DNA of 18,162 nucleotides, from the NCBI GenBank assembly GCA_046726415.1, contig JBKPAK010000130.1, positions 1 to 18,162 on the forward strand, given 5' to 3'. The position numbers and the translations under genes are program-made. The notes below the pieces were generated by a model. The model was not told where the DNA came from. It was given only the letters and a program-made list of their open reading frames with translations, and searched no databases. Within the stretch, counting starts at the first letter, position 1, and every line of letters begins with the position of its first letter. Origin of the DNA: Candidatus Methylomirabilota bacterium (lineage in GTDB: Bacteria > Methylomirabilota > Methylomirabilia > Rokubacteriales > CSP1-6). Shown here one piece after another: positions 2,963-18,162 of the stretch.

Positions 2963-3940
2963 CTAGGGGGCGCGATACTCCTCGATGATCTTGAGAATGC
3001 GTTCTCGGGCGACGTTCCTGAGCGCCGGATCCGAGAGGTCGCGATCGAGGTAGTCCTCCTCCACCTCGTACATCTTCATGAACCGCGGGGGCTGGCCGGC
3101 CGGCGCCGTCTCGATGAAGGGACCGCGTCCCGTCAGGACACCCTCCCAGGTCTCGCGCAAGAGCGCCCAGAACGCCTGTCGCGGGCGAGCGAACGCCTGG
3201 CCGGCGGCGCACTCGGAGTCCGGCACGCGCACGTACCAGTTCTTTCCGGTTTCCCTGGCGAGCGGGGTGCGACCCGTCTCGCCGTGGATGGTCTTGACGT
3301 TCTCCTGCCGTTCGAGCCAGCTGCCGCCGTAGGCGATGATGCGGGTGCCGCGCGCGAGGGCGTGGTAATCGCCACGGCCCATGTCGCGCGTCTCGCGGCC
3401 CGGGATCGGAGCGTAGTTCGAGCACGACCACTCGGGATAGACCGTGTCCGCCCGCCACCGCGCCGCGCACTGGTAGCGCAGCCCATCGTCGAGGTTCGTG
3501 ACCCGTCGCGTCCACAACCCGGGAGTGGCTCTCAAGTCCTTCACCTGCCAATGCCGCGGGGCCACGAAGTCGTACAGGTACGGCGCATCGTACTCCCAGT
3601 CTTCCGACTGATGCCGGATCTCGCTGCCCGCCCGGAGCTCACCTCGCAGATCCGTGGCGAACAGGACGCGCTGGAGCCGGATCCGCCGGGGCGACAGGAG
3701 CTCGGCGGAAATCCACTCCTTGACCGACTTGTCGCGGTTGACGTCGTAGACGCGAGCGTCCCGGACGTACCCGGGGCGGAGGCTCTCCGTTTCGGCGTAG
3801 CTGTAGTCCACGAGGTAACAGCCCGCCATACTGCGGATGGCCTGCCGCCCCCGGTCAAGCTGGTCGTCGGCCGCGCTTGCGGCAGCCACAGCGCCAGCCA
3901 ACAGCATCAGAACAGCGAGGATTCGCGCGAACGTCGCCAA
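2963..3940 (-). CDS. Secreted DUF6607-like protein
   Basis: Signal peptide ([23 protein letters not shown]). [40 protein letters not shown] and PIPGRE resemble the DUF6607 family as I recall it. TTG start is preceded by AGAGGAGAGG. Confidence 0.75.
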
Positions 3941-4016: not shown

Positions 4017-6347
4017 TCAGCGCGAGAACAGCTCGCGCAAACGCTGCCACCAGTCGCCGATGCGGCCCGGAAGCTGGCCGTGCTCGTCGCAAGCCGGCGG
4101 CTCGGTGCCGGTCAGGAAGACCTCGCGCGTGACGAGCGGGCACGACGCACTGGCGCGCTTGCCCGAGGTGGGGTCGATCTCGGCAATGCTGAGGCCGGGA
4201 GGTATCGGGAAGGGCGGCGACGGATAGGCTTCGAGCGCCTGCTTCATGAAGTCGGCCCAGATGGGAAGGGCCGCCTGCGCACCGTTGAGCCCGTGGGCGT
4301 CGTCCTGATCGAAACCCACCCATACGACCGCGAGCAGTCGCGACGAATAGCCGACGAACCACGCGTCGCGCCCGTCGTTGGTCGTGCCCGTCTTGCCGGC
4401 GATCTCTCCGGGCACGCCGAGGGCTTGCGCGGGAGCACCCGTCCCCGAGCGCATCACGCCGCCCAACAGCGACGTCATGAGATATGCCTCGGCAGGAGAG
4501 ATGACGGCCTGAGGGGGCCCCTCGTGCCCGCCAGGGACACGGGTGGGATCGGCACCGGAAAGCGCGCGCACCGCCGTGACGGCTTCCGGACGGACGCCGC
4601 CATTGGCGAAGGCCGCGTAGGCTCGCGCCAACTCCAGCGGAGTCACCTCGAACACCCCCAGGGCGATCGCCGGCACCGGCGCCATGCTCCCCGCGATGCC
4701 GAGCGCGCGCGCCGTCTCGAGCACTGTGGCGGGACCGACCGCCTGCGCGAGGCGAACGGTGGCGCTGTTGAGCGACTGCTCGAGCGCGCGCCGCACGCTG
4801 ACCCGCCCCTCGTAGCGGTCGTCATAGTTGCGAGGACTCCAGGGCTTCCGATCGACCTGCAAGGTGAGTGGCGCATCATCGACGAACGAGGCGGCGGTGA
4901 AGCGCGGGGCACCGTCGCGGGCGCGAAGGGCGGCGAGGTACACGAAGGGCTTGAAGGCCGATCCCGGCTGTCGTCGAGCGTGGGCCGCCCTGTTGAACTG
5001 GCTCGCTCGGTAGTCCCGGCCGCCCACGAAGGCCCGGATTTCTCCGGTGGAAGGATCGAGCGCGACGAGAACGGCCTGCAGGCGAGCGCGCTGGTCCGGC
5101 CGGCGCAACCGCGGCGCGCTGGTCTCCAGCCGATCGAGGCCTCGAGCGATCGCGTTCTCTGCGAAGCGCTGGAGGGGCGGGTCGAGCGTGGTGAAGACGC
5201 GTGTGATCTGCCCGTCCTTCAGAGTGTTCTCGTCGAACCGCCGTTCTATCTCCTGCCGAACGTGATCGGCGAAGTAGGGGGCCATCTGGCCGGGCCCTGG
5301 CTGGGCGAAGGCCCGGATCGGCTCGCGCTGGGCCCGCGCATGGGCGTTATCGTCGAGCATGCGTAGCTCGTGCATGCGCGCCAGTATCGAATCCCGACGG
5401 TCCCGCGCCCGCGCCGGGTCGACCACTGGAGAGTACGTGTTGGGGGCGCGGAGCATGCCGGCGAGCAACGCGGCCTCACCGGCCGTGAGCTGGTGGGGTT
5501 CCTTGGCGAAGTACGCGCGCGCGGCGGCTCCCACCCCGCGGATGGCCAGCGTGCCACGCTGGCCGAGATAGACCTCGTTCAGGTACGCCTCGAGGATCTG
5601 ATCCTTCGAGTAGCGCCACTCCACCAACGTAGCCAGCCAAGCTTCCTGGAGCTTCCTGGCCAGGGTCCGCTGCGGCGTGAGCAGCCGGATCTTGACGAGT
5701 TGCTGGGTGATGGTACTGCCGCCTTGGCGCACCCGCCCGGCGCGAAGGTTCGCCCACCCGGCGCGCGCCAGGCCGTAGACGTCGAGGCCCCTGTGGTCGA
5801 AGAACCGATGGTCTTCCGCCGCCAGCACGGCATTCACGAGGAGGGGCGACAGGTAGGCCAGCCGGATTGGCCGATGATCTTCTCCCGACTGATCAGCCCC
5901 GCCCGTGAGCACCTCACCCTCTAGCTCCAGACCATCGACGGGCTGAGCGTTGCGGAGCACGCGGGCGATCCTCGGGCCGTCCATCTCGAGGCGGACGCGT
6001 TCCCCGTGTCCCGTCTCTCGCGACCCCTCGCCGCCCCGAGGAATGATGTCCCACACGGCTTGCCCGCGGCGGAACTGACCGGGTGCGCTTGGTGTGCCTC
6101 TCACCTCGGTATATCCCAGTCGGCCCAGGGTGCCAGCGAGGTCGATGAGGCGAACGTGGACTCCGGGCGCCAACCGCTGCCCGGCCATATAGACGAAGAG
6201 GCTGCGGCGCGCCTCAGCCCGCGCAAAGCGCCGCAACTCGAGCGTGGAAGAGACAGCGGCCGCGAGCGTGGCCAACACAGTGAGCCCGGCCAGCCCGATC
6301 AGGACTGTCCGAGCTTTCGGCAACTTTCGCAGATATTCCGGCGTCAC
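4017..6347 (-). CDS. mrcB: Class A penicillin-binding protein, PBP1b-like (transglycosylase + transpeptidase, UB2H-like segment)
   Basis: N-terminal TM helix and UB2H-like LGYTEVRGTPSAPGQF. Transglycosylase motifs EDHRF, QGGSTITQQLVK, RKLQE and KDQILEAYLNEVYLG. Transpeptidase motifs SAFK, SLN and KTGT. Start placed at GTG 6347 (AGGGG upstream); ATG 6392 is the alternative. Confidence 0.88.
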   Translation of the reverse strand: MTPEYLRKLPKARTVLIGLAGLTVLATLAAAVSSTLELRRFARAEARRSLFVYMAGQRLAPGVHVRLIDLAGTLGRLGYTEVRGTPSAPGQFRRGQAVWDIIPRGGEGSRETGHGERVRLEMDGPRIARVLRNAQPVDGLELEGEVLTGGADQSGEDHRPIRLAYLSPLLVNAVLAAEDHRFFDHRGLDVYGLARAGWANLRAGRVRQGGSTITQQLVKIRLLTPQRTLARKLQEAWLATLVEWRYSKDQILEAYLNEVYLGQRGTLAIRGVGAAARAYFAKEPHQLTAGEAALLAGMLRAPNTYSPVVDPARARDRRDSILARMHELRMLDDNAHARAQREPIRAFAQPGPGQMAPYFADHVRQEIERRFDENTLKDGQITRVFTTLDPPLQRFAENAIARGLDRLETSAPRLRRPDQRARLQAVLVALDPSTGEIRAFVGGRDYRASQFNRAAHARRQPGSAFKPFVYLAALRARDGAPRFTAASFVDDAPLTLQVDRKPWSPRNYDDRYEGRVSVRRALEQSLNSATVRLAQAVGPATVLETARALGIAGSMAPVPAIALGVFEVTPLELARAYAAFANGGVRPEAVTAVRALSGADPTRVPGGHEGPPQAVISPAEAYLMTSLLGGVMRSGTGAPAQALGVPGEIAGKTGTTNDGRDAWFVGYSSRLLAVVWVGFDQDDAHGLNGAQAALPIWADFMKQALEAYPSPPFPIPPGLSIAEIDPTSGKRASASCPLVTREVFLTGTEPPACDEHGQLPGRIGDWWQRLRELFSR

Positions 6348-6371
6348 CCGCCGCCCCTGGTCCGGTCTCCC

Positions 6372-6388
6372 AGCAGCTACCGTGCCAA
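6372..6388 (-). promoter_or_regulatory. sigma54 (-24/-12) promoter candidate for the PBP gene
   Basis: Minus strand reads TTGGCACGGTAGCTGCT against consensus YTGGCACGRNNNTTGCW, with exact GG-N10-GC spacing. Predicted TSS near 6361, about 14 nt before GTG 6347. Confidence 0.55.
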
Positions 6389-6690
6389 CCATATCTCGAA
6401 GCGGAGGCGGACATCTGTGCGACGTCCCGCAGAACTTCGCGGATTGGCGATGCGTTTCGGGTCGCGAGGCGCGGGCTGGGCGCTGGTCGGCTCTCACAAC
6501 CAAGAAGGCAATTCCTACAAGGCAGTTCCTGCGCGCTCCGAGACGGTGCCCCGCCTCCGCGGGCTCGAGATGGAGCCGCTGGGGCACCCCATCTCCGCTA
6601 GGATACGGGACAGGATCTCGTCTCGGGGCGCATCCGGAGCGTGGGCCTCGCCGGCCGACGTGCCGAAGGGTGACGGGGGTCAGGATGAGC

Positions 6691-7212
6691 ATGAGCGCTC
6701 GTGTCGCGACGCCAGCGGACGCTCCGGCCATCGCGGAGATTTACAACCACGGGATCGAGGAGCGCGTCGCCACCTTCGAGACCGAGCCACGGACGGCGCA
6801 GCAGATCGAGGCGCAGCTCCGAGAGAAGGGCGACCGTCATCCGACGATCGTCGTCGAGCGCGATGGGGTGGTGGTCGCCTGGGCCAGTGCGGGCCCCTAT
6901 CGCGCGCGTCCCGCCTACCAGGGCGTCGCGGAGCACTCCGTCTACGTCCATCGGGCCGCGCGAGGCACGGGTGCCGGACGCGCCGCCCTCGAGGCGCTCT
7001 GCCGCATCTACGCGGAACGCGGCTTCTGGAAGCTCGTCTCGCGGATCTTCCCGGAGAACGTCGCCAGCCTCGTGCTCCACCAGCGCGCCGGCTTTCGCAC
7101 CGTGGGCGTGTACCAGCGCCACGGCCAGCTCGACGGCCTCTGGCGCGACTGCGTTATCGTGGAGAAGCTCCTCGGCGACACGGCTGCCGAGCCCGGTCCG
7201 AGGTCACCCTGA
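6691..7212 (+). CDS. GNAT N-acetyltransferase, phosphinothricin/arsinothricin (ArsN1 family A-like) acetyltransferase
   Basis: IYNHGIEERVATFETEPR, RPAYQGVAEHSVYV, RGTGAG acetyl-CoA loop, GFWKLVSRIFPEN and HGQLDGLWRDCVIVEKLL. Start is ATG 6691 or 6685. Confidence 0.85.
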   Translation: MSARVATPADAPAIAEIYNHGIEERVATFETEPRTAQQIEAQLREKGDRHPTIVVERDGVVVAWASAGPYRARPAYQGVAEHSVYVHRAARGTGAGRAALEALCRIYAERGFWKLVSRIFPENVASLVLHQRAGFRTVGVYQRHGQLDGLWRDCVIVEKLLGDTAAEPGPRSP

Positions 7213-7313
7213 CGCGCGATCGCGCCGTCCGCGCTTGGACGAGGGGCGCGGATTCGACAGGTCGCGCCGGTCACCCGCTCGTTCGAGCGCGCTCAGGCCT
7301 CGGACATGGCCGC

Positions 7314-8372
7314 TCAGGCCGAGGCGAGCGGCAGAGCGACACCGCAGCCCGTCCCGCTCGAGAGCAGCGCGGCCGCGAGCACCTCCTGCACGTCGCGACC
7401 GACCTCCGGACCGCACAGTCCCTCCACGGGGCGGCCATCTCGGATGCGCGACAGGAAGTAGCTTGGGCCATCGCGCTCGTCGGGCGGGAGCAGAGGTGGA
7501 TCGCAAACGCGGCTGCCTCCCGCCGTCACCAGCTGGACGTGACCGGAGCCGACCCTCTGTCCCTCGCGCGTCATCCGCGACTGGTGCACCACCAACGTTC
7601 CGGCGTCACCGTAGACCAGCATGGCGAACGCCGGCTCGGCGCCCACCTGCGTCCAGCTCGCCTCGAGAAGCCCGAGCGCGCGGGGATAGCGGAGCACGAC
7701 GACGACATTGTCCTCGGCCTCGAGATCCGGCTTGCGAAGGCGCGCCGCCACGGCCGTGACCTCCTGGGGTTTACCGAGAAGGGTCCGGCAGAGCAGGGCG
7801 CCATAGCCGCAGTAGTCGACGAGCGCGCCGCCACCGTTGCGGGCGGGATCGTAGAGCCACTCGCAGAACTGCGGCGAGCATCCGAACTCGCGCGGACCGG
7901 CGTGACCTCCGCGATGACTCACCTGGACCGGCTCCCCCACGGCGCCGTCCTGGGCGAGGGCCAGCCCGTGGCGGAGCGCAGGCCGCCACACCGTGGGCCA
8001 GTTCACCATCAGTGGCCGCCGCGCGACCCGGGCCGCGGCAAGCAACGCCTCCGCCCCCGAGAGGTCGGCCGCCATCGGCTTCTCGACCATCACGGGCAGT
8101 CCGCGCTGCAGCGCGCGCACACCCAGTTCGGCCGAGGTCCGGTTGTCGGAGAAGACCAGAACGGCGTCGAGGTTGCGGCGCTCGAGGAGCGCGTCGTGCG
8201 CAGCGAGCGCAGGGACCCCGCCGTGGGTCTGCTCCAGGCGCTGGCGGAGCCGGGGATCGGGATCCGCCGCCGCGACGAGCTGGCCGAGATCGCCCGTCGC
8301 CACCGCGGCGAGATTCGACCACACGTGGTCGTGGCTCAGCCCGAGGACACCGATGCGCAGGCGAGGCGTCAC
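7314..8372 (-). CDS. Gfo/Idh/MocA family NAD(P)-dependent oxidoreductase
   Basis: N-terminal Rossmann-like LRIGVLGL, VMVEKPMA motif, GGGALVDYCGYG and AEDN. GTG start is preceded by GAGG. Confidence 0.9.
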   Translation of the reverse strand: MTPRLRIGVLGLSHDHVWSNLAAVATGDLGQLVAAADPDPRLRQRLEQTHGGVPALAAHDALLERRNLDAVLVFSDNRTSAELGVRALQRGLPVMVEKPMAADLSGAEALLAAARVARRPLMVNWPTVWRPALRHGLALAQDGAVGEPVQVSHRGGHAGPREFGCSPQFCEWLYDPARNGGGALVDYCGYGALLCRTLLGKPQEVTAVAARLRKPDLEAEDNVVVVLRYPRALGLLEASWTQVGAEPAFAMLVYGDAGTLVVHQSRMTREGQRVGSGHVQLVTAGGSRVCDPPLLPPDERDGPSYFLSRIRDGRPVEGLCGPEVGRDVQEVLAAALLSSGTGCGVALPLASA

Positions 8373-8382
8373 GCGCGTCGCC

Positions 8383-8954
8383 TCAACCCTTGAGGCCGCC
8401 CGCTCCCCAGCCGGCGATGAGATAGCGCTGCACGGCGATGAAGAAGACGAGGGCGGGGATGGTCACCATGACGCCGGCGGCCATGATCAGGCCCCAGTCC
8501 ACCACCGCCATGTGGAAGAACTCGTTGATCCCGATGGCCAGCGCCACACGAAGACCGCGATGACGGTGGGAATCATGTAGGGGAAGAGGGCCACCCCGCG
8601 CAGGAAGTCGCAGCCCGCAAACCGCTTGTGCAAGATCAGCGCGCCGGCCACGCCGGCCACGATCTGCAGCGCCGTGCTGCCGATGGCGTAGACGGTGGCC
8701 AGCCAAACGCTGCGCCAGAAGTCGGCGTCGGCGAGAATCTGAAGGTAATTGCCGAGACCGACCCACGTGCTGGTGGCCCGCAGCGAATGCTTGGAGTAGA
8801 AGCCGAGCCACACATTGTAGGCCACGGGAAAGATGGTGAACGCGAGGACCAGCGCGGCGGAAGGCAGGAGCAGGCCCATGCCGATGACGGCCTGGCGCCA
8901 CCGGCGCGAGGCCGGCCCCGACGCGAGCACCAGCGTGTCAGCGCGCACACTCAT
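8383..8954 (-). pseudogene. Carbohydrate ABC permease pseudogene: N-terminus of a MalF/UgpA-type permease joined out of frame to the C-terminus of a MalG/UgpE-type permease
   Basis: 8954-8538 encodes LLLPSAALVLAFTIFPVAYNVWLGF...WVGLGNY...FWRSV...FPYMIPTVIAVFVWRW (permease 1 N-half). 8541-8383, in another frame, encodes LAIGINEFFHMAVVDWGLIMAAGVMVTIPALVFFIAVQRYLIAGWGAGGLKG (permease 2 C-terminus). No EAA loop is present. Confidence 0.82.
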
Positions 8955-9020
8955 GGAAACGTCCGCGGGCGGCCCAGCACCGGGCGGGGAAGAGCGCCGG
9001 CCACCCGCACCGTCGCCGTC

Positions 9021-9170
9021 CTACTTACTCTTGGCGATGATGTCTCGCTGAATCTTCTCGCTGGCCTCCTTGGCCGCCGCCCGAGGGTCCTTTCCCTTTT
9101 CCACCACGGCCATGGCCATGTCGGCCAGGATCGGGGCCGCGGCCACGTCGCCGATCCAGGGGATCAGCCG
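9021..9170 (-). pseudogene. C-terminal remnant of an ABC extracellular solute-binding protein
   Basis: RLIPWIGDVAAAPILADMAMAVVEKGKDPRAAAKEASEKIQRDIIAKSK* resembles the terminal helices of sugar-binding proteins and sits just upstream of the permease. There is no signal peptide or body of the gene and no convincing start. Confidence 0.6.
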
Positions 9171-9234
9171 GTCTTGCGGATTGCACACCAGCAGCGGATG
9201 CGCGCGACCCGTCCCTGGCGAGCCCGGTTGGGAG

Positions 9235-9263
9235 ACTATAGTCAAGCCTCGAAACCGCCACAA
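9235..9263 (-). promoter_or_regulatory. sigma70-like promoter candidate for the leftward ABC/Gfo operon
   Basis: Minus strand TTGTGG-N17-TATAGT. The -10 lies inside the perfect palindrome GACTATAGTC (9234-9243). Confidence 0.35.
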
Positions 9264-9319
9264 CCGAAAACACCGCCTCGAGGGGCCCCTGTTCCAGACG
9301 CTCTCCCAGCGGCGCCTGG

Positions 9320-9348
9320 TTGCGCCCTGCCAGGCGCGCCGCTATCCT
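9320..9348 (+). promoter_or_regulatory. sigma70-like promoter candidate for the aminotransferase-hydantoinase operon
   Basis: TTGCGC (9320-9325)-N17-TATCCT (9343-9348), about 60 bp upstream of ATG 9410. Confidence 0.45.
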
Positions 9349-9409
9349 CGGGCGAGCACAGATGGCGGCCAGCAGCGATGCTCGCACGACCACCGCAGCG
9401 AGGGAGACC

Positions 9410-10756
9410 ATGAGCCAGACAGCGAGAGCGCGATCGGCGGCCGAGGATCAGGTACTGGCGATGGCCGCGCGCCGCCTTCCGGGCGGTGTGCTCGGCTCCA
9501 CGCGGTACGCCGACGAGGCCGCCTTTATCGTCAAGCGCGGCCAGGGATCAAAGCTCTACGACGTGAGCGGCCGCGAGTACATCGACTATCTCCTGGGCTC
9601 CGGCCCGCTCATCCTCGGCCACGCCCATCCGGCGGTCGTGGCCGCCGTGCGCGAACAGCTCGAGCATGGCACCACGTATTTCCTCGTGAACGAGCGCATC
9701 GTGGCCCTGGCCGACGAGATCTGCCAGGCTGTTCCCTGTGCCGAGCAGGTGCGCTTCACGGTCTCCGGCAGCGAGGCGACGTTCTTCGCGCTACGGGCCG
9801 CGCGCGCCTTCCGCCAGCGCGAGAAAGTGCTGAAGTTCGAGGGCGGGTATCACGGCAGCCACGACTATGCCCTGATGAGCTCCTCACCGCGCACACCCAA
9901 GGCCTTTCCCGCCGCCACCGCGGACTCCGCGGGCATCCCGCACGTGATCGAAGGGGAGGTGCTCATCGCGCCGTACAACGACCTGGCCACGGTCGAGGCC
10001 CTCCTCGCGGTCCACGCGGACGCCCTGGCCGCGGTGATCGTCGAACCGTTCCAGCGCTTGATCCCGCCCGCGCCGGGATTCCTGCAGGGACTGCGGGAGC
10101 TGACCGGCCGCCACGCGATCCCCCTGATCTTCGACGAGGTGGTGACCGGCTTTCGCTTCGCCTACGGCGGCGCCCAGGAGTACTACGGCGTTGTGCCCGA
10201 CCTCGCCGCCCTCGGCAAGATCGTGGGCGGAGGTTTCCCGCTGGCCGCGGTCTGTGGACGGCAGGACATCATGCGCGCCTTCGACCCACGCCTGGACAGT
10301 ACGCCCGACTTCGTAGCCCAGGTGGGCACACTGAACGGCAATCCCGTCGCCGCGGTGGCCGGGCTCGCCACGCTGGCCGAGCTCCGAAAGCCGGGGACGT
10401 ATGCGCGCCTGCGCGAGATCGGACGCACCTTGCGCGATGGTCTCGCCGCGCTGGTGCGCGATTCCGGGGTTCCGGCGCAGGTGGTGGGCGAGACTGCCGT
10501 GTTCGACGTGGTCTTCACCAACCAGCCGGTGACCGACTACCGCTCGATGCTCAGCGCCGATGGCACTCTCATGCGGACCTTTAACGACGGGTGCCTGCAG
10601 CGGGGCATCGTGAAGGGCGGGCAGAAGATCTACGTGTCACTCGCCCACACCGACGCCGACATCGCTCGCACCCTGGAGATCTTCGCCGATGTCCTCGCCA
10701 CCTTGCCGCGGCCGAAGGGGCAAGGCGAGCTCGGGCGAGGAGCCTCCAGGACGTGA
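9410..10756 (+). CDS. Class-III PLP-dependent aminotransferase (glutamate-1-semialdehyde aminomutase-like paralogue)
   Basis: GPLILGHAHP, SGSEAT, KFEGGYHG, LIFDEVVTGFR, LGKIVGGGFP (PLP Lys) and GTLNGNP. ATG is preceded by AGGGAG. Confidence 0.92.
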   Translation: MSQTARARSAAEDQVLAMAARRLPGGVLGSTRYADEAAFIVKRGQGSKLYDVSGREYIDYLLGSGPLILGHAHPAVVAAVREQLEHGTTYFLVNERIVALADEICQAVPCAEQVRFTVSGSEATFFALRAARAFRQREKVLKFEGGYHGSHDYALMSSSPRTPKAFPAATADSAGIPHVIEGEVLIAPYNDLATVEALLAVHADALAAVIVEPFQRLIPPAPGFLQGLRELTGRHAIPLIFDEVVTGFRFAYGGAQEYYGVVPDLAALGKIVGGGFPLAAVCGRQDIMRAFDPRLDSTPDFVAQVGTLNGNPVAAVAGLATLAELRKPGTYARLREIGRTLRDGLAALVRDSGVPAQVVGETAVFDVVFTNQPVTDYRSMLSADGTLMRTFNDGCLQRGIVKGGQKIYVSLAHTDADIARTLEIFADVLATLPRPKGQGELGRGASRT

Positions 10757-14707: not shown

Positions 14708-14793
14708 CGGCCTTGCGACAGCCGTGCGGCGGGTCCGCCGCGCGAATCGAACGCGATCTTCGCCCGGACGGGGCGTCAAGGCAGGAGTCGTTC

Positions 14794-16512
14794 ATGCGCA
14801 GATACCTCGACATCGATCTCGACCGCCGCACGATCAACTCGCGCGAGCTCCACGGGGAGGACATCGTCAAGGCCGGGCGCTACCTGATCGCCAAAACGCT
14901 GCTGGAATTGGGGGCGGCCACCGTCGACCCGCTGTCGCCCCAAAATCCTCTCATCTTCTCGGCCGGCCCCTTCGCGGGATCCAGCTTCTCGAACGCCAAC
15001 CGGACGAGTGTCGGCTGCAAGAGCCCACTCACCGGCGGCATCAAGGAGGCCAATGGCGGCGGCTCCTTCAGCTACGGGCTGGGCCAGCTCAGGATCGCCG
15101 GCTTTACCCTGCATGGAGCCTCGCCAGACTGGGTGGTCCTTCACTTCACAAAGGACGGCGACATCGACTTCGACGACGCCGCCCCGTACCTGGGCAAAGG
15201 CAACTTCGAGGCCCAGGACATGCTGCACAAGCGGTACGGGAAGAAGGTCACCATCGCCCTCTGCGGACCCGTGGGTGAGTACCAGGGGCTCCTCGCCGGG
15301 ATCTCTTTCAGTGACAAAGACGGGCGACCGTCGCGTCTCTCGGCGCGCGGCGGGGTGGGCGCGGTGATGGGATCCAAGAAGGTGAAGGCGATCGTCGTCG
15401 ACCTCGATCGCATCCCTCCGTTCCACGAGGCCAAGAAGGTCAACGCGTCCATCAAGGACTACGCCAAGATGCTGCAGGCCGACTCCATGGTGGCGAACTT
15501 CTACGCCAAGATCGGCACGATGGGCATGGCCGATCTGCAGAATTACATGGGCGGCCTCCCCGTGCGGAACTTCAGCGCCGGCCAGCTGGTCGACACCTCC
15601 ACCGGTGAGAAGTTCAAGATGGGCGGCGAGTACATCAGTCAGCTCAACGTCTCGCGCGGCGGCGATCACACCCACGCGTGCATGCCTGGCTGCGTAATCC
15701 AGTGCAGCAACGTCTACCACGACGCCAGCGGCAAGGAAGTGGTCTCGCCGGTGGAGTACGAGACGCTGGGACTGCTGGGGACGAACTGCGGCCTCAGCGA
15801 CCCCGATGACCTCGCCCAGATGAACTACATCGCCAACGACCTGGGCGTCGACACGATCGAGCTCGGGGCCACCTTGGCCGTGCTCATGGACGCCGGCCTC
15901 GGCGTCTTCGGCGACGTCAAGTTCATGACCGACTGCCTGGCCGAGATCCGTCGGGGCACCGAGCACGGACGCCTCTGGGCCCAGGGCACCGCACGCGTCG
16001 GCGAGCACTACAAGGTCGCGCGGGTGCCGGTCATCAAAAAGCAAGCTATCAGCGCTTACGACCCGCGGGTGATCGAGGCGACCGGCGTGACCATGATGGC
16101 GACCGCGCAGGGCGCCGACCACACCGCTGGCAACTTGCCCCGCCTCAAGACCCGCGAGATGGACGCGGAGTCGATCATCAGCCAGAGCCTCGCCCATCAG
16201 GCGCGGGTGGCCGCCAATGACTCCTTAGGACTCTGCATCTTCGGCATGAGCGTGACGAACCCCAACACGGAATTTCTGGCCAACGCCATCAACGCGGCGC
16301 ACGGAACGAACCTCACCAAGGACTTCTTCGAGCCCCTCGGGCAGGAGGCGCTTCGCCTGGAGTACGAGTTCAACCGCCGAGCGGGCTTCACCGAGAAGGA
16401 CGACGAACTACCCGAGTTCTTCTACCGCGAGCCGCTGCCTCCGACCAACCTCGTGGCGCGCTTCCACGCCGCCGACGTGCACGGCATGTACGAGCGCCTG
16501 CCGGCGGGATAG
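14794..16512 (+). CDS. Aldehyde:ferredoxin oxidoreductase family (W/Mo-bis-pterin, 4Fe-4S)
   Basis: KSPLTGGIKEANGGG, ARGGVGAVMGSKKVKAI, Fe-S cysteines CMPGCVIQC plus DSLGLC, EYET, DLGVDTI, YDPR and GADHT. ATG 14794 is preceded by AGGAG. Confidence 0.93.
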   Translation: MRRYLDIDLDRRTINSRELHGEDIVKAGRYLIAKTLLELGAATVDPLSPQNPLIFSAGPFAGSSFSNANRTSVGCKSPLTGGIKEANGGGSFSYGLGQLRIAGFTLHGASPDWVVLHFTKDGDIDFDDAAPYLGKGNFEAQDMLHKRYGKKVTIALCGPVGEYQGLLAGISFSDKDGRPSRLSARGGVGAVMGSKKVKAIVVDLDRIPPFHEAKKVNASIKDYAKMLQADSMVANFYAKIGTMGMADLQNYMGGLPVRNFSAGQLVDTSTGEKFKMGGEYISQLNVSRGGDHTHACMPGCVIQCSNVYHDASGKEVVSPVEYETLGLLGTNCGLSDPDDLAQMNYIANDLGVDTIELGATLAVLMDAGLGVFGDVKFMTDCLAEIRRGTEHGRLWAQGTARVGEHYKVARVPVIKKQAISAYDPRVIEATGVTMMATAQGADHTAGNLPRLKTREMDAESIISQSLAHQARVAANDSLGLCIFGMSVTNPNTEFLANAINAAHGTNLTKDFFEPLGQEALRLEYEFNRRAGFTEKDDELPEFFYREPLPPTNLVARFHAADVHGMYERLPAG

Positions 16513-16608
16513 CGTTCCCGCGACGGGTCGACGCGCCCCACGGCTCAGGAGGGATATCCGAGCGTTCGGGGATCGGGGTGGCGGTGGCCATGTCGAGGCC
16601 CCCAGCGG

Positions 16609-18021
16609 TCAATGACATTGGCCAATCCCCACATCGACGAACGTCCGGCTGGCCACCGGGATGAACTGCCACTCGTACCCCGTCGGGTAGAGGGTCAGCT
16701 TGAGGACGCCGAACGTGTCGTCGCTGCGGATCTCGCTGTTGGCCATCGCCGGTCCCACGAACGAATGGTGACTCCCCCCTCCAGTGCCAACGACGAATTG
16801 CCGGAGGCCCCGATACGGATCCCGTGTTCCGTCCGGACGCTGCGCCGCGAAGCGCTCGTAGGTGTGGTCGTGGCCTCCCAGCACGACGTCGGCGCCTGCC
16901 TCGTAGAGGGCCTGCCAGAACGCGTCATAGGCCGTGTCGCTTCCGTGGGGTCCGGAGCTGAAGCGCGGATGGTGCCAGTACGCCAGCGTGCAGCGGCGCT
17001 GGTCCGCGCCGAGCACCTGGCGCAGCCACCGTTCCTGGGGTGAGCCCACGCCGCACCCGCCGACGTCGGTGCAGTTCGAGTTCAGGACGATGATGCGCCA
17101 CCCGCCAAGCTCGTAATCGTAGTAGCCTCGGGCCGGGCTTCCCGCGGCCGCCCCGAAGTACTCGAAATAGCCGGACGCCCCGGGCGTCAGATAATCGTGG
17201 TTGCCGGGGGTCGGGCGGGTGCGTGCCTTGTGACGGCCCCAGCTCGGGTCGTAGCATGCCGCGAACTCGATGGGCGTCCCCGCCTCGTAGGCGTGATCTC
17301 CGAGCGTGAACACGACGCCGTCCACCACATCGAGCAAGTCCGCGGTGGCCTCGTCCCCGTCGCTGACGCAGGAGGCGATGTCTCCGGCACCGACGAGCAC
17401 CACGGCATCGCTGCGCGACGCACCCGGGCGCTTTTCCACCAGCGCCTTCAGCTTTTCGACGAGATCCTCATAAGAAGAGCGCGCGATGAGCGTGGTGAAC
17501 TGGCTTCGATAGTTGTTGACGAGGCTGATGCCGTCGACGTCGAGATCGTAGATCTTCCACTGATCACCGGGAGCGAGCCGGGTCTGGTAGGCCACGGGGA
17601 TCTGACGTCCCTGCTTGGTGAACACCCGCGTCCTGACCAGGGCTCGCTCACCATCGATCGCTTCGCCGAGATACTCGAACCGCTGGCGATCGGCGAGCTG
17701 GATTCGCGACAGGTACGTCCGCTGAAACAGCTCGGCAAAGAGCCGGACGAACTCCGCACGCTCGGCGGCCGACCGCGCCTCCCAGTGCTGACCGAGAGTA
17801 CGCTTGGCCATCTCGGGCCAGTCGAACATCTCGTCCATCACCTTGCGCGCCGCAGTTTGCCCTTCGGGCGTCGGGGTCCCCGGCCCGCCCAGGAGCTCGT
17901 AGAGCTTGTCGATGCGCGTCCGCAGGTAATCGGTCGGGGCCCCGGCCAGGGCCAGGGGTGGCGCGGCCACGGTGACGACGAGCAGTGGCCAGAGGAAAAA
18001 GAACCGTAGACGGAGCTTCAT
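16609..18021 (-). CDS. Exported fusion protein: MlaC/Ttg2D-type phospholipid-binding domain + calcineurin-like (purple-acid-phosphatase-type) metallophosphoesterase
   Basis: Signal peptide ending ALA-G. Residues ~27-196 carry MlaC motifs FDWPEMAKRTLGQHW, ERAEFVRLF and WKIYDLDVDGISLVNNYRSQF. Residues ~206-470 carry AGDIA, GDHAY, GNHD, WHHP and GHDH. Single frame, strong SD AGGAGG. Confidence 0.88.
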   Translation of the reverse strand: MKLRLRFFFLWPLLVVTVAAPPLALAGAPTDYLRTRIDKLYELLGGPGTPTPEGQTAARKVMDEMFDWPEMAKRTLGQHWEARSAAERAEFVRLFAELFQRTYLSRIQLADRQRFEYLGEAIDGERALVRTRVFTKQGRQIPVAYQTRLAPGDQWKIYDLDVDGISLVNNYRSQFTTLIARSSYEDLVEKLKALVEKRPGASRSDAVVLVGAGDIASCVSDGDEATADLLDVVDGVVFTLGDHAYEAGTPIEFAACYDPSWGRHKARTRPTPGNHDYLTPGASGYFEYFGAAAGSPARGYYDYELGGWRIIVLNSNCTDVGGCGVGSPQERWLRQVLGADQRRCTLAYWHHPRFSSGPHGSDTAYDAFWQALYEAGADVVLGGHDHTYERFAAQRPDGTRDPYRGLRQFVVGTGGGSHHSFVGPAMANSEIRSDDTFGVLKLTLYPTGYEWQFIPVASRTFVDVGIGQCH

Positions 18022-18084
18022 AGATACCTCCTGGACCAGCCGTTGAAGACCCGTCGGGGGAGCACGACCACGCTGATATGCCCA

Positions 18085-18113
18085 ACCTTACGTGAGCGGC
18101 ATGGGGGCGTCAA
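18085..18113 (-). promoter_or_regulatory. sigma70-like promoter for the MlaC-phosphoesterase gene
   Basis: Minus strand TTGACG (18113-18108)-N17-TAAGGT (18090-18085). Confidence 0.6.
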
Positions 18114-18121
18114 TCAGGCCG

Positions 18122-18150
18122 GCGTCACCGAAACTTCACCGAACTGACAG
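18122..18150. promoter_or_regulatory. 11-bp-period direct repeats, Pho-box/OmpR-family-like
   Basis: GCGTCACcgaa ACTTCACcgaa CTGACAG. TCACCGAA repeats exactly 11 bp apart, and the minus strand begins CTGTCAG. Confidence 0.45.
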
Positions 18151-18162
18151 CATCGCGCAATG

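Follow-up and report, generated by a model that had tools for sequence, protein, structure and literature searches.

Why should a lipid carrier of the bacterial envelope be covalently joined to a phosphatase-like enzyme? The question is raised by a gene of a Candidatus Methylomirabilota bacterium, located near one end of an 18,162-nucleotide stretch of contig JBKPAK010000130.1 (assembly GCA_046726415.1); this whole stretch is called the window below. The single product of the gene, P0001, consists of a domain of the MlaC/Ttg2D lipid-carrier family followed by a metallophosphoesterase of the purple acid phosphatase (PAP) type. We find that the two halves share one origin and have been inherited together. 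We propose that the MlaC domain may deliver a substrate in cis to the tethered PAP-type hydrolase, for phosphate recovery or lipid turnover, a reading to which we give slightly less than an even chance.

An earlier description made from the letters of the DNA alone, hereafter the sequence-only reading, had seen here one uninterrupted frame of 470 residues containing a complete MlaC domain, a short linker and a metallophosphoesterase. The frame is indeed free of stops over its full length, both Pfam domains score above their cut-offs, and the linker KRPGASRSD had been placed exactly. The protein is thus built of two recognisable parts, which we consider in turn.

The N-terminal half matches the MlaC family (PF05494) over residues 56-192 in a Pfam scan, with 132.5 bits (cut-off 26) and an E-value of 1.6e-38. 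Its sequence matches in the PDB are 11hy, 2qgu and E. coli MlaC. When the MlaC half of an AlphaFold2 model was compared with solved structures by Foldseek, the matches were 8dte, with a TM-score normalised to the target (TMt) of 0.82, 2qgu (0.76) and E. coli 7vr6 (0.74); over all MlaC/Ttg2D proteins, lipid-bound structures included, TMt ranged from 0.70 to 0.82. The fusions keep 27 of the 39 positions that are conserved among 18 stand-alone MlaC proteins. Three charged positions differ: E100, R146 and E163, each shared by 15-17 of these 18 free proteins, are replaced in 97-100% of 34 fusions, a set from which the frameshifted P0046 was excluded; the query has Q, Q and D there.

In its canonical form, MlaC stands alone, has about 200 residues and shuttles between MlaA and MlaFEDB. 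The carriers of solved structure (5uwa, 6hsy, 2qgu, 8dte, 11hy) share fold, family and export with the N-terminal half, and the closest genuine free MlaC proteins, of 201-205 residues, are about 56% identical to it. The protein encoded in the window departs from this pattern: it is no free single-domain carrier but a chain of 470 residues, with a 265-residue enzyme attached to the C-terminal helix of the MlaC domain. It also falls far under the cut-off of the E. coli MlaC equivalog (NCBIfam PRK15117), scoring 25.8 bits where 195 are required. Members of the MlaC family bind diacyl or tetra-acyl phospholipid in a hydrophobic cavity, and the MlaC domain may likewise bind lipid, a point on which the 27 kept positions bear only indirectly. 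A different MlaC fusion is seen in P0425 (333 residues), where the MlaC domain is followed by a SPOR peptidoglycan-binding domain (PF05036 + PF05494).

What kind of enzyme does the carrier hold? PAPs are characterised by the motif set GDxx / GDxxY / GNH[DE] / xxxH / GHxH, which provides seven metal ligands, including a tyrosine. The C-terminal half matches Metallophos (PF00149) over residues 221-388 (37.3 bits, cut-off 21.5, E-value 4.9e-9). Its retention of the seven PAP-type ligands and of six cysteines, noted in the sequence-only reading, extends to the whole set of fused relatives: D214, D242, Y245, N274, H350, H384 and H386 are each present in 34/34 fusions, and so are C218, C256, C317, C323, C344 and C469, all of which lie in the enzyme half. 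The same seven ligand positions occur in 22/22 enzyme-only relatives examined. C218, C256, C344 and C469 are equally invariant in these, C317 is found in 17 and C323 in 18 of the 22. The cysteine pattern is therefore a trait of the whole enzyme family, and it fits an extracytoplasmic, disulfide-bonded enzyme.

The top Foldseek matches of the enzyme half are all PAPs, from lupin (PPD1, 3zk4, E-value 4e-14), rat (1qfc, TMt 0.74), pig (1ute, TMt 0.67) and kidney bean (1kbp), at 15-22% identity in the structural alignments. Sequence relatives of solved structure found by phmmer are PAPs only, with an E-value of 8.8e-6 to wheat PAP phytase over 133 residues and of 0.004 to kidney-bean PAP; H350 and the GHDH motif align with the histidine ligands of the latter. 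Plant PAPs (1kbp, 3zk4, 6gja) and the mammalian ACP5 enzymes (1ute, 1qfc) thus have in common with it the fold, the five motifs and the seven ligands with the tyrosine. It differs from them in its low identity, its six conserved cysteines and its place in a large bacterial family, and no plant-PAP-type N-terminal domain was detected by the Pfam scan. We rejected a PhoD-type phosphodiesterase/phosphatase: there is no PhoD match in Pfam, and 2yeq ranks only 35th in Foldseek, with a TM-score normalised to the query (TMq) of 0.38. PAPs have an Fe(III)-tyrosinate chromophore and act as acid phosphomonoesterases; the enzyme half would be a binuclear hydrolase of this type.

Both halves are probably exported as one chain. 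By inspection, the N-terminus, MKLRLR-FFFLWPLLVVTVAAPPLALA followed by G, resembles a Sec signal peptide (a signal peptide had been seen in the sequence-only reading), and in 34/34 fused relatives a hydrophobic 12-residue window (Kyte-Doolittle >1.6) lies ahead of a conserved TDY motif. The signal-peptide region has a mean pairwise identity of 0.305 across the 34 fusions and a low predicted local distance difference test score (pLDDT) in the AlphaFold2 model. Nothing resembling a second signal peptide is found at the junction, also in line with the sequence-only reading. On inspection and hydropathy, for the query and 34/34 relatives, the protein appears to be exported to the periplasm like other members of the MlaC family. 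Many orthologues have twin-arginine-like starts (e.g. MTRRVL.., MKRRLF..), in contrast to the KLRLR of the window protein; members of the family may use different export routes, Sec or Tat, or the arginine pair may be incidental.

Does the fusion occur elsewhere? When 5.8 billion proteins were searched through a word index, 120 matches were listed, among which 36 (P0002-P0036 and the partial P0075), at 61-100% identity, contain both Pfam domains according to precomputed annotation. The combination is thus not unique to this assembly. The records of the fused relatives come from JGI, ENA, NCBI and Logan; where a source organism is named, it is 'Candidatus Rokuibacteriota' or 'Methylomirabilota'. 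When phmmer was run exhaustively against 1.84 billion representatives at 50% identity, one of the 150 best matches (P0008) spans the whole query and the other 149 cover only residues from about 200 to 470, so that these 150 hold a single 50%-identity cluster of fusions.

Among the 34 fusions, pairwise identity averages 0.685 in the MlaC half and 0.768 in the enzyme half, and the values of the two halves are correlated (r = 0.775). In a tree of the enzyme domain with 340 rows, 34/34 fusion rows form one clade (Shimodaira-Hasegawa-like support 96); the nearest named relatives are Chloroflexota proteins, in a sister relationship that is poorly supported. In the tree of the MlaC domain, 35 fusions span a clade of 60 tips (support 91). 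The other 25 tips of this clade comprise 13 fragments recognised automatically and 12 others, of which only P0271, P0274 and P0276, with clean ends just behind the linker, are possibly true MlaC-only proteins.

We also considered an origin in which relatives keep the two halves as separate genes, and rejected it, with these three proteins as possible exceptions. The MlaC-only and enzyme-only matches of at least 58% identity that were examined are truncated, frameshifted or rearranged copies of the fusion. The short MlaC-only matches run into the linker and the first enzyme strand (…VLVGAGDIASC…) before a frameshift or the end of a contig, and P0089 begins inside the MlaC domain. Other copies are altered in other ways: P0046 is a frameshifted fusion, P0120 lacks an internal part of the MlaC domain, and P0116 is a chimera with a PASTA-containing N-terminus in place of most of that domain. 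The one clade in both trees, together with the conservation of both halves, is consistent with one fusion event and vertical descent thereafter. The MlaC and enzyme halves have a single origin and are co-inherited.

The sequence-only reading had known of no description of such an architecture, and full-text literature searches yielded no account of an MlaC-phosphoesterase fusion. A phylogenomic study of Mla in Veillonella contains neither 'fused' nor 'fusion' in its text, its supplementary tables aside. The proteins themselves are already present in public databases under generic names such as 'ABC transporter substrate-binding protein' or 'MlaC component'; the architecture is apparently undescribed. 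We regard it as a lineage-restricted and well-conserved domain combination for which a plausible mechanism can be proposed, and not as a new kind of system.

How could the two halves work together? In the alignment to E. coli MlaC, the junction falls directly behind the C-terminal helix of the MlaC domain. Its position is the same in the fused relatives and the length of the linker is nearly constant (alignment A1), with a mean pairwise identity of 0.38 across the 34 fusions for the linker region, residues 197-206. In Pseudomonas MlaC, according to a preprint (bioRxiv 10.64898/2026.05.15.725309), the C-terminal helix gates access to the lipid cavity and is involved in docking to MlaD. If this applies here, the enzyme should sit by the mouth of the cavity, since the junction is at the gating helix. 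By the same analogy, canonical MlaD docking of the fusion may be impeded.

In the reading we favour, the fusion protein would be Sec-exported and disulfide-bonded, and would reside in the periplasm with two functional halves. The MlaC domain would take up an amphipathic phosphate ester and bury its acyl chains, the likeliest ligand being a glycerophospholipid or a monoester derivative, e.g. phosphatidic acid (PA) or lysophosphatidic acid (LPA). The tethered PAP-type centre would then hydrolyse the exposed phosphate head group of a substrate supplied in cis. The likely purpose would be to win back phosphate from lipids of the membrane or from scavenged ones, or to turn over envelope lipids degradatively. 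In favour of this reading count the constraint on both halves and their shared descent, the MlaC positions that are kept, the invariance of the seven ligands, the PAP and MlaC structural matches and the placement of the junction. The binding of lipid, the identity of the ligand, the action of the enzyme on lipid and the physiological role are all our inferences.

Several points weigh against this proposal. PAP-type enzymes are chiefly phosphomonoesterases, and the bulk lipids of the envelope, phosphatidylethanolamine, phosphatidylglycerol and cardiolipin, are diesters. The changes at E100, R146 and E163 may mean that the MlaC domain has an altered ligand or partner specificity; these residues may mark a changed surface for ligand or partner, or may take part in the interdomain contact.

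The models also leave the relative orientation of the domains uncertain. With a 74-row alignment (A2), AlphaFold2 reached a mean pLDDT of 89.4 and a predicted TM-score (pTM) of 0.63, with pLDDT below 50 at residues 200-202; with the fusions alone the result was worse (mean pLDDT 73.3, pTM 0.52, pLDDT below 50 at residues 197-204). A domain-domain prediction of enzyme residues 205-470 against MlaC residues 28-198 speaks for the proposal, but suggests a complex only weakly, its verdict being 'weak support' with a score of 0.57 and no individual contacts listed. The runs gave 0.57, 0.54 and 0.64, with at least 95% contact agreement and a partner pLDDT of at least 83, and the best of 3 controls gave 0.00. 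The pass mark of this method is reached by 116/157 solved complexes and 2/215 mismatched pairs, and a score of at most 0.60 is found for only 18 of those 157 and for both passing mismatches; these calibration counts are only roughly valid, because the analyst's own alignment was the input.

Genomic context adds to the points against. No phosphate-regulon or lipid-metabolism family is found among the window open reading frames (ORFs) scanned with Pfam. A profile search of genome contigs with the fusion alignment gave at least 80 loci, and all 80 listed match the enzyme half only (query residues about 135-470). Around the 12 of these loci whose neighbours were scanned (121 of 124 picked ORFs, three large distal ORFs being omitted), there are no pst, pho or mla neighbours and no recurrent neighbour.

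A stronger version of cis delivery is possible, though we think it rather doubtful: the protein could 'extract-and-hydrolyse' on its own, as a self-contained machine that has arisen in bacteria as a convergent counterpart of acid sphingomyelinase. Here the MlaC-type domain would pull a phospholipid (or PA or LPA) from the membrane or off MlaA, and the head group would be fed directly into the tethered PAP-type centre. Acid sphingomyelinase (SMPD1) combines a saposin domain with a calcineurin-like PF00149 domain and needs the interface between the two for its activity (PMC4961792). The two proteins are alike in having a lipid-handling domain N-terminal to a PF00149 domain, and, as predicted for the fusion, in being extracytoplasmic and disulfide-bonded; SMPDL3A/B are among the weaker Foldseek matches. 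They differ in that the lipid-binding folds are unrelated (saposin against NTF2-like MlaC) and that acid sphingomyelinase is eukaryotic and lysosomal. The Pfam scan finds no saposin domain in the fusion, whose N-terminal domain is MlaC. The metal centres differ too, with two Zn ions and DxH-type motifs in acid sphingomyelinase and the PAP-type set with its tyrosine in the fusion. The likeness is one of analogy, not of homology of architecture.

Acid sphingomyelinase is also a functional precedent for cis delivery in general, and bacterial systems offer two more. PlcP is a metallophosphoesterase phospholipase C without an MlaC domain; it removes phosphate head groups from membrane lipids to save phosphorus, in an intracellular remodelling pathway, and its likeness to the fusion is one of description only. 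PlcP-type enzymes remodel lipids under phosphorus starvation (PMC4796936). In Pseudomonas aeruginosa, MlaZ-MlaY couples Mla-type lipid extraction to a periplasmic putative lipase, so that lipids are degraded and not returned (PMC10374164). That system pairs an MlaA-like lipoprotein with a separate putative lipase, whereas the fusion has its MlaC-like carrier and its phosphoesterase in one covalent chain.

Could the MlaC domain instead be a mere tether? It might park a general periplasmic phosphatase at MlaA, at the MlaD hexamer or at the membrane surface, where soluble organophosphates would be hydrolysed for phosphate scavenging, much as PKD, Big_2 and CBM96 domains would tether the enzyme elsewhere. 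We judge this improbable, with some weight left to it by the enzyme family itself. The family is large, with 22,838 representatives at E-values up to 1e-3 and 4,419 up to 1e-30 (phmmer), and has neither an NCBIfam model nor a close solved member. The enzyme module can follow a signal peptide with no other domain, e.g. in forms of 298-375 residues, and is found in tandem copies in 105/266 proteins carrying it. It is also fused to CBM96 (Micromonospora, Catellatospora, Acidobacteriota), PKD, Big_2 and GH99, and to glucose-dehydrogenase and laminin-G-type domains; examples include P0122-P0268 and the genes at L069 9377-10777, L072 9131-10777, L016 9224-10801 and L024 7364-11743. Such a pattern is typical of scavenging exoenzymes. 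With so many partner domains in other phyla, the enzyme family appears habitually to recruit an accessory binding domain. One may picture a secreted phosphatase cassette whose target would be set by the attached binding domain, here a lipid carrier, a logic that speaks for cis delivery; the non-lipid partners also leave room for an MlaC domain that simply docks or localises the enzyme.

At L016, in Acidobacteriota, a beta-propeller phytase gene (7615-8604) lies immediately upstream of the CBM96-PAP-like phosphatase gene. This phytase is the only phosphorus-scavenging neighbour among the 12 loci examined, and a scavenging tether would accord with it. The nearest ESM Atlas clusters are enzyme-type only (score 0.85) and auto-named 'Alkaline phosphatase family protein', which is a lead only in the same direction, and the loose placement of the two domains by AlphaFold2 is equally compatible with a tether. 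Yet a periplasmic enzyme of a diderm cell requires no anchor for its retention, and the 27 family-conserved core residues kept in the MlaC half go beyond what a mere docking surface would need. Moreover, a 265-residue domain on the helix that regulates MlaD docking in Pseudomonas MlaC would be expected to hinder that very docking.

Cis delivery could also serve another cargo, in the service of envelope remodelling and not of phosphate salvage. Candidates are a polyprenyl (pyro)phosphate, phosphorylated glycolipids such as lipid A, and hopanoid-type lipids. We hold such a cargo to be quite unlikely. It is suggested by the scores of the MlaC half, which reach 71.5-74.2 bits on the HpnM model and only 25.8-28.6 bits on the E. 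coli MlaC equivalog, and the changes at E100, R146 and E163 would again hint at altered specificity. HpnM (TIGR03481) is the best NCBIfam match of the N-terminal half and is itself an MlaC-fold paralogue with a proposed new cargo, in a single-domain protein. We nevertheless rejected membership on score, since the 71.5 bits of the query are far under the cut-off of 160.1. Stand-alone MlaC relatives score alike on this model (82.3 and 69.4 bits), so that the leaning towards HpnM is a trait of the lineage and not a property of the fusion. Hopanoids, besides, are free of phosphate. No hopanoid, lipid A or polyprenyl family is found among the Pfam-scanned ORFs of the window. HpnM is described in PMC12324291 as one subset of the proteins with an MlaC domain, for which hopanoid shuttling has been proposed; the paper also reports the hopanoid methylase HpnP in Methylomirabilota/Rokubacteria, which would suit such a cargo.

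An artefact (a chimeric assembly, genes joined by a frameshift, or a decaying accident without coupling) could draw on the broken relatives P0046, P0120 and P0116 and on the metagenome-assembled origin of all known members, but it is essentially excluded by the 36 fused proteins of 61-100% identity from four sources, by their identical junction and nearly identical length, and by two conserved halves of correlated divergence that form one clade in both domain trees, the broken copies looking like this one fused gene with errors of sequencing or assembly.

What would cis delivery mean? MlaC has been treated as a pure carrier, and how its lipid is loaded, gated and released is an active question. 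A carrier welded to a hydrolase could act as a built-in reporter of cargo presentation, because catalysis would depend on exposure of the head group. For diderm soil bacteria, it may represent a new route for recovering lipid phosphorus or for policing the lipid asymmetry of the outer membrane. It is also an example of how members of a large, uncharacterised family of secreted PAP-like enzymes could be aimed at substrates by swapping accessory domains. Should the extract-and-hydrolyse version be true, Rokuibacteriota would possess an Mla-independent recycling of periplasmic lipid phosphorus, or a means of destroying mislocalised outer-membrane phospholipids. It would be the first case in which an Mla shuttle domain has come to deliver the substrate of an enzyme, in a convergent parallel to the eukaryotic acid sphingomyelinase. 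These prospects concern an uncultured lineage and a function that is wholly inferred.

The features of the gene and of its upstream region are collected in the table.

Features of the MlaC-phosphoesterase fusion gene and its upstream region (positions in the window).
Feature	Position	Strand	Basis and remarks
Whole fusion gene P0001	16609..18021	-	Uninterrupted frame, 470 codons + stop; signal peptide-MlaC-linker-PAP-like metallophosphoesterase
Shine-Dalgarno-like AGGAGG	18027..18032	-	5 nt before ATG; direct sequence reading
Predicted Sec-type signal peptide, aa 1-26	17944..18021	-	Inspection; MKLRLR, hydrophobic core, ALA followed by G
MlaC/Ttg2D-type lipid-binding domain (predicted), aa 28-196	17434..17940	-	PF05494; last element is the C-terminal helix of the family (aa 184-196)
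Interdomain linker KRPGASRSD, aa 197-205	17407..17433	-	9 residues; low pLDDT, low identity
PAP-like binuclear metallophosphoesterase domain (predicted), aa 206-470	16612..17406	-	PF00149, Foldseek, phmmer; six conserved Cys
Motif I GAGDIASC (D214 ligand; C218)	17368..17391	-	34/34 fusions, 22/22 enzyme-only relatives
Motif II LGDHAY (D242 bridging ligand; Y245 PAP-specific Tyr)	17287..17304	-	34/34 fusions, 22/22 enzyme-only relatives
Motif III GNHD (N274 ligand)	17194..17205	-	34/34 fusions, 22/22 enzyme-only relatives
Motif IV WHHP (H350 ligand)	16966..16977	-	Aligned to the single His of kidney-bean PAP 'lmHsp'; 34/34 fusions
Motif V GHDH (H384, H386 ligands)	16864..16875	-	Aligned to GHVH of kidney-bean and wheat PAPs; 34/34 fusions
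8-bp direct repeat TTCGGTGA-N3-TTCGGTGA	18125..18143	-	104-122 nt upstream of ATG; assignment to the gene speculative

The gene had been credited with its own promoter upstream. This claim was not supported: a scan of 16300-18162 found 0 sigma-70 consensus promoters, and also 0 intrinsic terminators. The direct repeat of the table is exact, has an 11-bp period and is the sole match to TTCGGTGA-N3-TTCGGTGA in the window. With 3 mismatches allowed, 22/200 shuffles contain at least one match; exact 8-mer repeats at 10-11 bp spacing are expected about 0.011 times in 141 nt, a figure to be read with the repeat having been spotted post hoc. It is a possible site for a response regulator of the OmpR/PhoB type, and its link to the gene is only speculative.

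On the downstream side lies a convergent gene for aldehyde:ferredoxin oxidoreductase (14713-16512, plus strand), as had been described. The accompanying statement that no mla gene is adjacent stands for this side only, the window reaching just 141 nt beyond the start of the gene. No Mla family is found among the window ORFs scanned with Pfam. The other Pfam-matched ORFs encode a PAPS reductase, a TauD dioxygenase, an aldo-keto reductase, a DUF6607 protein, a class A penicillin-binding protein, a GFO/IDH/MocA oxidoreductase, a class III aminotransferase and hydantoinases A and B.

In the regions 8383-9320 and 6006-8393, several long ORFs are unmatched in Pfam, at 8383-8901 (minus strand), 8487-8954 (minus), 8628-9413 (plus) and 6006-8393 (plus), so that the stretch between the GFO/IDH/MocA and aminotransferase genes is unannotated. 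The DUF6607 gene (2963-3940) adjoins that of the class A penicillin-binding protein. At the far end of the window, on the minus strand (3-1690), the genes for the PAPS reductase and the TauD-family dioxygenase stand side by side, on a theme of sulfur assimilation or scavenging.

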